A stretch of DNA of 64,000 bases, from NCBI RefSeq assembly GCF_036507355.1, contig NZ_AP027877.1; one strand, 5' to 3'. This document shows positions 6,001 to 15,000 of this stretch, piece by piece. The position numbers were made by a program. The stretch comes from Escherichia coli (GTDB lineage: Bacteria; Pseudomonadota; Gammaproteobacteria; Enterobacterales; Enterobacteriaceae). Every line of letters starts with the position of its first letter. Positions within the stretch are counted from its first letter, which is position 1.

Positions 6001-9000
6001 ATGATTGTAAGTTTTCAGCGGCTTTTTCGCCGAGATATTTCCTTGTTAACTCTGGGGAAATGCCATCTGAGTTCACACAAATATACGGGTCGCAAACAAC
6101 GCCGCACGCCGGAGATTGAAGTCCGCCAGCGTCATTTCCAGACACCATTGATGAGAACATCATCCCCACACCTGACAATCCGATATAAAAAATACGCATC
6201 ATATTCATAGCACATCCTGATAATCCAACCGTACAACACTTATGCTCATTTCATCATCAATCCGTAATCAAAACCGCTGACCTGGACGAGTTACGATGAC
6301 CTGACAGAAGTATCAGACGTCTTCTGCGGTTTCTATGATAGAGCAATTCTGTGGCGGATATTAAGATAACGGGTATCTGTTCTTTAATGATGCTGCAAAA
6401 AATGGAAAGTTAAGAAAGCCTGGCGTGGTGAAAAAATACACTTGCCTCAATACTGGATATTTAAACAGATCTAAAGATGCTGTCACGATTAGGGTGCGGA
6501 AAAAGGAAGCGTAAATAAGAACAATCAAAAGTACGACGGCAATGGGTTGATTGACAAGGGTATTTTTTAAGCTATGAATCAGCGCCATTTATCACAGAAT
6601 AGACTTTTACTCTGAATAAATGGGAGGGTGACTTGCCTCAATATAATCCAGACTATAACATGCCTTATAGTCTTCGGAACATCATCGCGCGCTGGCGATG
6701 ATTAATAGCTAATTGAGTAAGGCCAGGATGTCAAACACGCCAATCGAGCTTAAAGGCAGTAGTTTCACTTTATCTGTGGTTCATCTGCATGAGGCAGAAC
6801 CTAAGGTTATCCATCAGGCGCTGGAAGACAAAATCGCTCAGGCCCCCGCATTTTTAAAACATGCCCCCGTTGTACTCAACGTCAGTGCACTGGAAGACCC
6901 GGTAAACTGGTCAGCGATGCATAAGGCGGTTTCGGCAACCGGTTTGCGGGTTATTGGCGTAAGTGGCTGCAAAGATGCGCAACTTAAAGCCGAAATTGAA
7001 AAGATGGGGCTGCCTATCCTGACGGAAGGAAAGGAAAAAGCGCCGCGTCCAGCTCCCGCATCGCAGGCTCCAGCGCAAAATACAACGCCGGTCACAAAAA
7101 CGCGTTTAATTGATACCCCGGTGCGTTCCGGTCAGCGTATTTATGCTCCACAATGTGATCTGATTGTTACAAGCCACGTTAGCGCTGGGGCCGAATTGAT
7201 TGCCGATGGGAACATTCATGTCTATGGCATGATGCGCGGTCGTGCGCTTGCAGGGGCAAGTGGTGACCGGGAAACGCAAATATTTTGTACGAACCTGATG
7301 GCGGAATTGGTGTCCATCGCAGGTGAATACTGGCTGAGTGATCAAATCCCAGCAGAATTTTATGGCAAAGCGGCGCGACTGCAGTTAGTCGAAAACGCTT
7401 TGACCGTTCAACCGTTAAATTGATCCCTTTTTAACAAGGAATTTCTATGGCACGCATTATTGTTGTTACTTCGGGCAAAGGGGGTGTTGGTAAGACAACC
7501 TCCAGCGCGGCCATCGCCACTGGTTTGGCCCAGAAGGGAAAGAAAACTGTCGTGATAGATTTTGATATCGGCCTGCGTAATCTCGACCTGATTATGGGTT
7601 GCGAACGCCGGGTCGTTTACGATTTCGTCAACGTCATTCAGGGCGATGCAACGCTAAATCAGGCGTTAATTAAAGATAAGCGTACTGAAAATCTCTATAT
7701 TCTGCCGGCATCGCAAACACGCGATAAAGATGCCCTCACCCGTGAAGGGGTCGCTAAAGTTCTTGATGATCTGAAAGCGATGGATTTTGAATTTATCGTT
7801 TGTGACTCCCCGGCAGGGATTGAAACCGGTGCGTTAATGGCACTCTATTTTGCAGACGAAGCCATTATTACCACCAACCCGGAAGTCTCCTCAGTACGCG
7901 ACTCTGACCGTATTTTAGGCATTCTGGCGTCAAAATCACGCCGCGCAGAAAATGGCGAAGAGCCTATTAAAGAGCACCTGCTGTTAACGCGCTATAACCC
8001 AGGCCGCGTAAGCAGAGGTGACATGCTGAGCATGGAAGATGTGCTGGAGATCCTGCGCATCAAACTCGTCGGCGTGATCCCAGAGGATCAATCAGTATTG
8101 CGCGCCTCTAACCAGGGTGAACCGGTCATTCTCGACATTAACGCCGATGCGGGTAAAGCCTACGCAGATACCGTAGAACGTCTGTTGGGAGAAGAACGTC
8201 CTTTCCGCTTCATTGAAGAAGAGAAGAAAGGCTTCCTCAAACGCTTGTTCGGAGGATAAGTTATGGCATTACTCGATTTCTTTCTCTCGCGGAAGAAAAA
8301 CACAGCCAACATTGCAAAAGAACGGCTGCAGATTATTGTTGCTGAACGTCGTCGCAGCGATGCAGAACCGCATTATCTGCCGCAGTTGCGTAAAGATATT
8401 CTTGAGGTCATTTGTAAATACGTACAAATTGATCCTGAGATGGTAACCGTACAGCTTGAGCAAAAAGATGGCGATATTTCTATTCTTGAGCTGAACGTGA
8501 CCTTACCGGAAGCAGAAGAGCTGAAATAAGCCCGCTGTAAAAGCGCATTTATCTTCAAGGCAGAGTTATCTCTGCCTTGAGTTTTTCATCCCTCTCATCC
8601 ACTTTGTGGTAAAGCGGCGAGTATTCTTGCTGATACTCCTCATTGCTATTTCCACCTCCCCCTTTACACCTTAAGGCTGTTCCCACGCACAAAACAAAAT
8701 GTTTATGCCTGGTTGAGTAAATAACCTTATTGTTAGTATGGATATACTGGGAGATGATAACCCCGCAATTTCATTATTCATTGTTCTCCCATAGGATGAG
8801 GTTTCCCGCCGTAACTGGCGGGCTTTTTTTACCCCAGAATTTTCTCTTTTAACCTCCTGTAAACGAAAACTGTGCCGAAGTGCAGTTTAATCGTTGATGG
8901 TCAGAACGACCAGTTCACACCAGCCACCGCGTTCCACGGGGATTCCACACCGGCACCGTTGCTATACCCCACCCCGAGATGCCCGCTTAACGTACTGCTG

Positions 9001-12000: not shown

Positions 12001-15000
12001 TCCTGATTGCCATGATTGATGATATGAGCATTATTTGTTGTACCTCGTTCATCTACTCTTTGGCTGCCGTCTACAGTCTCATCATTTACAACGCCAATAA
12101 CATTAGAAGTGAAAGCCGTCATCCCGGGAGGGGCATATATCATGGCAGATATCAATAAGGAAAGTACTGAGCGGTGAAAATAATAGCGACTGGTTCTGTT
12201 CATAAATTTCATCCTCTGAAAAATGAATACTGAGTAGCGTCTAAGTGACCTAAGCTCTGCTGGGTGATGCTGCCAACTTACTGATTTAGTGTATGATGGT
12301 GTTTTTGAGGTGCTCCAGTGGCTTCTGTTTCTATCAGCTGTCCCTCCTGTTCAGCTACTGACGGGGTGGTGCGTAACGGCAAAAGCACCGCCGGACATCA
12401 GCGCTATCTCTGCTCTCACTGTCGTAAAACATGGCAACTGCAGTTCACTTACACCGCTTCTCAACCCGGTACGCACCAGAAAATCATTGATATGGCCATG
12501 AATGGCGTTGGATGCCGGGCAACAGCCCGCATTATGGGCGTTGGCCTCAACACGATTTTACGTCACTTAAAAAACTCAGGCCGCAGTCGGTAACCTCGCG
12601 CATACAGCCGGGCAGTGACGTCATCGTCTGCGCGGAAATGGACGAACAGTGGGGCTATGTCGGGGCTAAATCGCGCCAGCGCTGGCTGTTTTACGCGTAT
12701 GACAGGCTCCGGAAGACGGTTGTTGCGCACGTATTCGGTGAACGCACGATGGCGACGCTGGGGCGTCTTATGAGCCTGCTGTCACCCTTTGACGTGGTGA
12801 TATGGATGACGGATGGCTGGCCGCTGTATGAATCCCGCCTGAAGGGAAAGCTGCACGTAATCAGCAAGCGATATACGCAGCGAATTGAGCGGCATAACCT
12901 GAATCTGAGGCAGCACCTGGCACGGCTGGGACGGAAGTCGCTGTCGTTCTCAAAATCGGTGGAGCTGCATGACAAAGTCATCGGGCATTATCTGAACATA
13001 AAACACTATCAATAAGTTGGAGTCATTACCGCTCTGCTGCAACATCAGCCCGCAGGCACCAGACCAGGGGATTCCTCCTGAAGAGACAGCGCAGGTGTAT
13101 TGTGTTCACCGCTCACCAAAGACATCATGATGAAATGATGATATTCCGCATAAGAAAGAGGCATTTTTTAAACGCAGTGCGCTGAAGTGTAGTTGGATAA
13201 AAAATCACTCTTTTCAGATAATACTGTCGTACGCTGACTTTTCGACAATGAGGCCGTCGGCAAAATAAAATGACTAATGTAATCGTTGCTGATGAATATC
13301 TTCTGCTCACATAAAAATCACACAATAATATTGATAAATCAGATTATCTTACCTTTACAACATTGCGTTAACAGTCAATGACACTTCTTGAATAAAAATA
13401 TTGTCAATCAATGAGTTATTCCTCATTTAAGATTATTCTCATTCACGTAAAAACATAATTCCTATCATCACCGTCACGCTCATTTTGAATTATCTGAATA
13501 ATAGCGAGCGTTCTTTAGTTAAGCAGATCTTAATTGAAGACGAAATTATTGTGTGTGCAACTTACTTAATACCGGACATCTAAGTTGAAGAAAAAAATAC
13601 TTGCCTTCGGGCTTATCTCAGCATTGTTCTGCTCCACGCCAGCGATGGCGGATATGAACCGCACCACGAAAGGTGCATTGCTAGGCGCAGGCGTTGGGTT
13701 ACTTACTGGCAATGGTGTTAATGGCGTACTGAAAGGTGCAGCTGTTGGCGCTGGTGTTGGTGCAGTAACAGAAAAAGGCCGCGACGGTAAAAATGCGCGT
13801 AAAGGTGCAAAAGTGGGTGCCGCCGTTGGTGCTGTCACTGGCGTTCTGACCGGCAATGGCCTCGAAGGGGCGATTAAAGGTGCCGTGATTGGCGGTACGG
13901 GTGGTGCAATTCTGGGTAAAATGAAATAAGGAATGATGATGAAAAAATTTGCTTTACTGGCGGGTCTGTTTGTTTTCGCACCAATGACCTGGGCGCAGGA
14001 CTACAATATTAAAAACGGTTTGCCGTCAGAAACCTATATTACTTGCGCAGAAGCCAACGAAATGGCAAAAACTGACAGCGCACAGGTTGCAGAAATTGTT
14101 GCGGTAATGGGTAATGCCAGCGTTGCCAGCCGTGATTTAAAAATTGAGCAATCTCCGGAACTGAGCGCCAAAGTGGTAGAAAAACTGAATCAGGTTTGCG
14201 CTAAAGACCCGCAAATGCTGTTGATCACGGCAATTGATGACACCATGCGTGCTATCGGCAAAAAATAATATTTCATATGTTACCGCGTCGATGAATTCGA
14301 CGCGGTATTTTAGCTAACGGGGATCAGAACTTATATTTCAGGCCCACCATCACTGCGGTGTCATTGTAGCCATTATCACCCAGCTGCACGCCCACATTAC
14401 CCCAGACGCTGGCCGCCGGATTCAGATTGCCATTTACGCCAAGTTTAATTTCCCCCAAATTACGCGCCCCGTCTTGTTCGACTTTCACGCCGTTCATTGA
14501 GACAGCAAAATCTTTACTGTTATGGATCCAGTTCATTTCAACAAAAGGTTCAAAGTCGTCACCGTGCGGACCGCTGTTTTTCTCCTGAGTACGAATAAAA
14601 GTGCGGAAACCAAGTCGGGTCTGGATGTTGTTATTTGCGTCATTCTCAATACGTGAGCCATTGGCTTCGGTGTGCGCATTATGATCGACGCCCATCCAGA
14701 TAGCCTGTGCCTGTGGCTGGAAGATCCACGTATATTTCGCCGCTTCCAGACCAAAGGATTTATTCAGGGCAAAGCCGTAACCCGCTTCCAGCGAGACGGT
14801 TGCGCCTTTCGCGCTATAGGATTCATAGGCTAATTCATCCCCTTTCACCGAGTTTTTAAACCAGCTATATTGCGCCCAGGCGTCAATGTATGCGCCTTTT
14901 TTACTAATGTCATCAGCAAACCAGGTGGCATACAGCCCTGCGCTATAGCCTCTGACACTCCCTTTCGAACGATAATCCGACACGCTGGAATGAGTTGAGT

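Follow-up and report, generated by a model that had tools for sequence, protein, structure and literature searches.

An intact YpjA-like autotransporter gene parted from its upstream region by a recent IS1 insertion in Escherichia coli

What becomes of an adhesin gene when an insertion sequence (IS) separates its complete coding frame from the region upstream? The question is raised by a locus next to minE in a 64,000-nucleotide stretch of Escherichia coli contig NZ_AP027877.1 (assembly GCF_036507355.1; the whole stretch is called the window below), in which a full-length gene for a YpjA-like autotransporter adhesin lies on the minus strand with a complete IS1 directly before it. The reading that we favour, with moderate confidence, is that the gene is intact and has been cut off by IS1 from its transcription signals, so that its expression would be silenced or strongly reduced. 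Analysis of the gene and its product, the insertion, the leader, the orthologues and the ypjA paralogue bears on this reading and on its competitors.

The plus-strand genes minC, minD and minE (6713-8529) are followed on the minus strand by an uninterrupted open reading frame (ORF) at 8901-12212, which encodes 1103 amino acids (aa) from its first ATG, as the first-pass annotation of this DNA had described. The minus-strand sequence before the ORF reads ...TTTTTCAGAGGATGAAATTTATGAAC. It contains a Shine-Dalgarno motif, AGAGGA, that touches the first ATG (12212) and lies 8 nt before a second, in-frame ATG at 12203. Because of this spacing, and because NCBI annotates the orthologue of E. coli TB06052 from the second ATG (MNRTSRYYF...), the start codon is probably the one at 12203, 9 nt further in. 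The gene would then span 8901-12203 (stop codon 8901-8903) and encode a ~110-kDa protein of 1100 aa, in keeping with the collinearity of the orthologues, with the ATG at 12212 as the alternative. No exact match to the 1103-, 1100- or 1080-aa form was found in a collection of 15 billion proteins. The neighbours of the gene are only minE, IS1, ymgJ, ymgI, ymgG and ymgD.

The IS1 is complete at 768 bp (12263-13030, plus strand), with canonical terminal inverted repeats, an A6C frameshift motif, and both insA (12318-12593) and the insB frame (12512-13015) intact; its position and extent are those reported earlier. Its left inverted repeat points at the autotransporter gene, and its transposase genes read away from it. 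The distance of about 50 bp to the start codon given previously holds for the first ATG (50 bp) and becomes 59 bp for the likelier second one. The element is flanked by a perfect 9-bp target-site duplication, GCTCTGCTG, at 12254-12262 and 13031-13039. In the IS1-free locus of TB06052 this 9-mer occurs once, within otherwise continuous sequence. Together, the duplication and the continuous TB06052 site indicate that IS1 arrived by simple transposition, with no rearrangement.

The insertion is recent, and ordinary in kind. In fact, the two IS1 copies of the window (12263-13030 and 17090-17857) differ at only 1 of 768 nt, the exact junction between IS1 and leader (GACCTAAGCTCTGCTG/GGTGATGCTGCC, with the slash at the junction) is present in 0 of 5,426 complete E. 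coli genomes, where six apparent matches are two-piece alignments at the ypjA locus, and a relative that is 99.96% identical (GCA_905398585.1) lacks the second IS1. The IS1 before the autotransporter gene is 98.8% identical to the annotated IS1 of E. coli ET201.

The insertion falls within the 5' leader of the gene. A native segment of 59 nt, including the AGAGGA ribosome-binding site, is retained next to the start codon (12204-12262, minus strand), and the segment between the insertion point and ymgJ (13040-13124, minus strand) is displaced to the far side of IS1. Beyond it lies ymgJ itself (13125-13310, minus strand), which is co-directional with the autotransporter gene and immediately upstream of it; it has a GTG start, and comparison of its translation with K-12 YmgJ identifies an intact gene for this 61-aa small protein. 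Upstream alignment of the orthologues and of the K-12 ypjA paralogue reveals a leader conserved on both sides of the insertion point, and conservation between this locus and ypjA is high over the last ~200 nt.

A consensus scan of the stretch from the start codon to IS1 and over the junction found no sigma-70-like minus-strand promoter (none with at least 8 of 12 matches), and a relaxed scan of the junction and the retained leader gave 7/12 at best. No good promoter site was found by the consensus scan in the native 135-nt intergenic leader with IS1 removed; the best minus-strand candidates, at 13371-13343 and 13245-13218, lie beyond IS1, upstream of or within ymgJ. The polarity of IS1 is long established. 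Because no junction promoter is detected, the best candidates lie beyond IS1, the conserved leader is split and IS1 is polar, we favour loss or strong reduction of transcription, the gene presumably depending in operon-like fashion on signals that now lie on the far side of the element.

We note two further features of the leader. In several RefSeq genomes, and also upstream of ypjA, a 39-codon ORF that overlaps the end of ymgJ (window ~13085-13165) carries the annotation 'ATPase' or 'hypothetical protein'; this call, within the conserved leader, is probably spurious. A structured leader RNA was considered and rejected, since shuffled sequences fold just as well as the 159-nt leader without IS1 (z = +1.2).

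The effect of an upstream IS1 is known to depend on the spacing of a -10 element from the outward -35 in the IS1 end: afaA goes up, osmB goes down and ugd is unchanged (PMC8764528). The ugd case leaves room for a gene that carries its own promoter, here in the retained 50-59 nt, in which case IS1 would be neutral for expression; the conservation of the last ~200 nt of leader with ypjA could likewise reflect regulatory elements near the start. However, the retained segment must also house the ribosome-binding site, its best promoter matches are 7/12 and end 2-12 nt from the ATG, and the conserved leader reaches well past the insertion point and is therefore split by IS1. We regard such an arrangement as unlikely.

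Slightly less likely again is the activation of a cryptic adhesin, either via the outward -35 of IS1 or by relief of upstream silencing of the H-NS type. The gene-facing end of the element does carry an outward -35 (TTGGCA) at 8 bp from its tip, the ORF has stayed intact, and IS1 hybrid promoters raise afaA transcription by ~7 log2 (PMC8764528). In fact, the IS1 insertions of the afa operon in E. coli sequence type 131 (ST131) described in that study resemble the present one in that IS1 sits in the regulatory region of an adhesin with an outward -35 in its end. In contrast to these, the IS1 of the window has no well-placed -10, and its transposase genes are directed away from the adhesin gene. 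The hexamer at a spacing of 17 bp, TTAGGT, matches only 2/6 of the -10 consensus, without the key A at position 2; spacers of 16 and 18 bp offer nothing better, and no candidate exceeds 7/12. Where IS1 has no well-placed -10, expression falls or stays as it was (PMC8764528). The hybrid IS-junction promoter put forward in the first-pass annotation thus finds no support in the sequence. The strongest form of the idea, in which IS1 has switched on a cryptic YpjA-type adhesin through an unconventional junction promoter or through separation from a silencer, and the frame has been retained through use, strikes us as improbable.

The favoured reading, an intact gene uncoupled from its signals, also requires that the encoded protein be whole. 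The predicted product is a classical type Va autotransporter of the AIDA-I class, and every part named in the earlier description (signal-like region, repeat passenger, RGD, Asn-Pro linker and barrel) was recovered by Pfam, NCBIfam, the structural model or the sequence itself. All of its segments are given here on the minus strand. The N-terminus, MNRTSRYYFHRSVLSLLISAMIYAPPGMTA (12114-12203), resembles a signal peptide: its n-region is basic, its hydrophobic core spans 13 residues, and Ala stands at position -1 of the cleavage site predicted from sequence. In an AlphaFold2 model with a 28-sequence alignment as input and a mean predicted local distance difference test score (pLDDT) of 82, residues 1-29 have pLDDT <50. 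The model comprises an all-beta passenger (residues 34-760), a disordered Asn-Pro linker (764-794), a helix (800-830) and a barrel (838-1099).

The passenger (10284-12104) would form a beta-helix of 18-19-residue, Gly/Thr/Asn-rich repeats of the AIDA type, for most of which the model has pLDDT of 80-95. Pfam reports six AIDA repeat matches at E<=0.001 and two weaker ones besides, the strand-loop-strand repeats of NCBIfam TIGR04415 are also matched, and the self-identity of residues 38-560 has maxima at offsets 19, 18, 37 and 56, each above all 200 shuffles. The repeat length of 19-20 residues first proposed was therefore close, with a computed period of 18-19. A pertactin-type autochaperone follows (9927-10283; Pfam Pertactin PF03212, residues 644-762, model positions 1-120 of 121, E 6e-47) and holds the single RGD, at residue 687 of 1100, which is kept in the orthologues and in K-12 YpjA. 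The subsequent (Asn-Pro)10 linker is encoded by a hexanucleotide (6-nt) repeat array at 9853-9917, detected by Tandem Repeats Finder. An alpha-helical linker (9714-9806), placed by the model directly before the first barrel strand, would fill the barrel pore.

The C-terminal outer-membrane beta-barrel translocator (8904-9692), which ends in ...NWSF, is matched by the Pfam Autotransporter beta-domain PF03797 (residues 842-1081, model positions 1-254 of 255, E 4.6e-45) and by NCBIfam TIGR01414 for the autotransporter barrel, at 325.9 bits where the cut-off is 16. Foldseek matches the passenger best to Ag43 crystal structures (E 4.5e-25) and the C-terminus to the BrkA beta-domain (template modelling score, TM, 0.91; root-mean-square deviation, rmsd, 2.5 A), EspP and the AIDA-I transport unit, and a sequence search of the PDB agrees with these matches. 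Among the classical type Va features represented are a 12-strand C-terminal barrel, a helix before the barrel and a beta-helical passenger with a C-terminal autochaperone. The earlier assignment to the AIDA/Ag43 type holds as a class, on which Pfam, NCBIfam, the AlphaFold model and Foldseek concur, and does not extend to family membership, as the protein scores 178 bits against a cut-off of 1200 for Ag43/Cah (NF033177) and 151.5 bits against 1200 for AIDA-I (NF033176). The NCBIfam cut-offs for YfaL/EhaC and BafA are likewise not reached by far.

With Ag43, AIDA-I and TibA the protein shares a beta-helix of AIDA-type repeats, the TIGR04415 matches, Ag43 as its best structural match and an AIDA-I/BrkA-like transport unit. 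Identity to TibA-like proteins is ~33-35%, and unlike Ag43, AIDA-I and TibA the window protein has no extended signal-peptide region. Despite repeats of the type targeted by heptosyltransferases (TIGR04415), no adjacent heptosyltransferase gene of the aah/tibC type is present among the neighbours of the locus.

Is the gene a complete representative of its kind, or a truncated or chimeric one? Four annotations were examined at the locus (TB06052, ETEC6334, RIVM_C037166 and ET201). Three of the orthologues are intact, with 1136 aa in TB06052, 1150 aa in ETEC6334 and 1126 aa in RIVM_C037166; the 1124-aa orthologue of ET201 is 5'-truncated. The intact three occupy the same minE-ymgJ locus, are 96-98% identical to the window protein (98% for TB06052) and are collinear with it end to end. 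Their sole difference in length lies in the Asn-Pro array, with 10 copies in the window against 23, 28 and 35 in the orthologues, all in frame. Because the ratio of nonsynonymous to synonymous substitution rates (dN/dS) among orthologues is 0.10-0.20, the gene is under purifying selection where it is present.

Two side observations concern these orthologues. Short-read assemblies seem to break the gene at the Asn-Pro array, and many database matches are fragments. In ET201 an independent IS1 interrupts the same gene within its signal-peptide codons, and a deletion links the element to ymgC (6776-7554 of the extracted ET201 locus); the NCBI pipeline still annotates the truncated gene as an intact coding sequence, from an internal Met.

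Next to minE, K-12 carries only the annotated pseudogene ycgI (b4521, 344 bp), as the first-pass annotation had stated. It aligns with ~98% identity to window 8902-9245, the last 114 codons, and is thus the same gene at the same locus, of which the window keeps the whole. In K-12 a deletion of 2,988 bp, with 1-nt microhomology, brings window ~12233 (30 nt before the start codon) next to ~9246 (junction ...GACGCTACT/ATCATTTATCC, with the slash at the junction). The junction itself lies at K-12 1223544-1223565, with window ~9246-12233 missing, and K-12 consequently has no ribosome-binding site, no start codon and none of the first ~986 codons. Because K-12 retains both flanks of the deletion, the full gene is the ancestral state at this locus and the K-12 deletion the derived one. 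The suggestion that the window carries the intact ancestral gene is upheld by this and by the collinearity with the orthologues, which speaks against a truncated or chimeric gene. An IS1-mediated origin of the K-12 deletion was rejected, as K-12 runs 29 nt past the insertion site and joins by the 1-nt microhomology. A modelled barrel is mentioned for YcgI in the literature.

We estimated the frequency of the full gene by searching an IS1-free reconstruction of the minD-ymgD region against the 5,426 complete E. coli genomes, counting as full-length a locus with at least 80% query coverage in one place. Such a locus is present in 422 genomes (7.8%), and the other 5,004 (~92%) have none. A K-12-type gap of the same size is seen in genomes sampled from diverse origins, ST131 and ATCC 25922 among them. 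Because this gap recurs in diverse genomes, the ~3-kb deletion that created ycgI is old or has been spread by recombination.

Comparison with ypjA defines the second relationship of the gene. Over its 3' 2.4 kb it is 95.8% identical to K-12 ypjA, against ~87% in two 5' segments, and homology extends ~340 bp upstream through a ymgJ-like stretch. The alignment as a whole (window 8891-13364 against 4137-9112 of the extracted K-12 ypjA region) is mosaic in identity, with the ymgJ-like leader also at ~87%. This unevenness along the paralogues suggests gene conversion between the two loci. With YpjA of K-12 (b2647), known as EhaD in enterohaemorrhagic E. coli (EHEC), the window protein shares almost identical C-terminal ~800 residues, an 81% identical BLASTP alignment of 992 residues, the N-terminus and start region, the conserved upstream leader and the order of domains. 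High identity over the whole length of K-12 YpjA (1526 aa) is not reached: the window protein is shorter by 426 aa and lacks two passenger blocks (~580 and ~640 bp), and the DNA of the N-terminal passenger is only ~87% identical.

The two genes also differ in place, ypjA lying at the ssrA/CP4-57 and ypjB-ypjC locus (K-12 2,778,146-2,782,726) and the window gene between minE and ymgJ, and in their linker, which is short, non-repetitive and of the PNPDP/KPDP type in K-12 YpjA and (Asn-Pro)n in the window gene. The window gene is a shorter paralogue of ypjA/ehaD and not its orthologue. The NCBI pipeline names the minE-linked orthologues 'ypjA: adhesin-like autotransporter YpjA/EhaD', and this name is, at the minE locus, a label carried across loci. 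Expression of YpjA promotes adhesion and biofilm formation, according to PMC3796261, which cites Roux 2005, and to PMC9289746. A genomic SELEX (systematic evolution of ligands by exponential enrichment) table (PMC5493296) lists an RpoS-holoenzyme peak upstream of ypjA, with an uncertain coordinate version; if the peak is real, a stationary-phase promoter might lie in the conserved leader that ypjA and the window gene have in common.

That the gene was dead or dispensable before the insertion, for instance through an unusually short Asn-Pro linker or missense changes, with IS1 as one more hit, is again improbable. In favour of this reading are the 10 Asn-Pro copies of the window, where the three orthologues have 23-35, a dN/dS slightly raised in pairs that include the window, and the loss of the gene from most E. 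coli. Against it, no stop codon or frameshift occurs in 3.3 kb, the domain models all match at full length, and the linker change is in frame, with K-12 YpjA carrying its short linker at the same place.

Some points weigh against silencing by IS1 itself. A weak, activator-dependent or other-sigma promoter within the retained 59 nt could escape a consensus scan, and genes can also be switched on when an IS1 insertion disrupts their silencing. An ORF open over 3.3 kb fits a very recent insertion and continued use alike. Finally, dN/dS in comparisons with the window, 0.15-0.20 against 0.10-0.125 for the other pairs, is only slightly higher and does not discriminate between the readings. We nevertheless continue to favour uncoupling of an intact gene.

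From what is known of the family, the protein would be exported in a Sec-dependent manner via its N-terminal signal peptide, and its C-terminal 12-strand barrel would be inserted into the outer membrane with the assistance of the beta-barrel assembly machinery (BAM). The passenger would then pass the barrel, leaving the helix in the pore, and the pertactin-type autochaperone would nucleate folding of the beta-helix of 18-19-residue repeats, which, by analogy with YpjA, may promote adhesion, aggregation and biofilm formation. In the window, an active-looking IS1 has inserted in the conserved 5' leader, 59 nt before the start, and has parted the gene from ymgJ and from the promoter-like sites. 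Its polarity would silence the gene or strongly lower its expression, with the coding frame left intact. Such an insertion may mark an early stage in the loss of the gene, in a lineage with expanding IS elements.

The surroundings of the gene are those of an IS-rich chromosome. Over 24 kb, core genes reach at most 98.7-98.9% identity with any of the 5,426 E. coli genomes. The assembly GCA_905398585.1 is 99.96% identical over 12 kb beside icd, and the lineage of GCA_905398585.1 or SRR31122001 is 99.95-99.96% identical over this neighbouring stretch. The start of a Cap15-like gene (region 16872-18300) is interrupted by the second IS1 (17090-17857, minus strand), which has a 9-bp duplication of its own, TATGGCTAT. 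Next to icd, GCA_905398585.1 has an intact pair of Cap15 and CD-NTase genes of a cyclic-oligonucleotide-based anti-phage signalling system (CBASS); in alignment to it, only ~360 bp of the Cap15-like gene are left in the window, where IS600 cuts the gene off. A further autotransporter gene, ycgH (region 14324-16906), is cut at 15643 by the same element (orfB 15661-16473 and orfA 16530-16814, minus strand). IS elements thus appear to be eroding this neighbourhood, ycgH through IS600 and the cap15-like gene through IS1.

Compared with K-12, the window lacks e14, iraM, ycgX, bluR, bluF, ycgZ-ymgA-ariR-ymgC, pdeG, ymgF and the first ~1.3 kb of ycgH. We note that a 407-aa YcgH fragment is common to unrelated strains. 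A PADLOC search for defence systems gave 0 matches, and the only Rfam match in the window at the gathering threshold is the C0299 small RNA (2083-2161, minus strand; RF00119, 111.9 bits).

The gene adds an uncharacterised member to a well-known family; automatic annotation already gives it a name, and hundreds of genomes carry it. The observation is correct but ordinary, and its importance beyond annotation is small. Were activation true, a new surface property would be gained by an IS-rich E. coli lineage, as one more case of IS1-driven adhesin activation, a mechanism already documented. For annotation, ycgI can be understood as the stump of a YpjA-like adhesin gene kept whole in ~8% of complete E. 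coli genomes, and the label 'ypjA' on a paralogue at another locus can inflate or confuse surveys of adhesin genes. For the lineage itself, the IS1 insertion offers a clean, datable example of how IS expansion may begin to disable genes for surface proteins.

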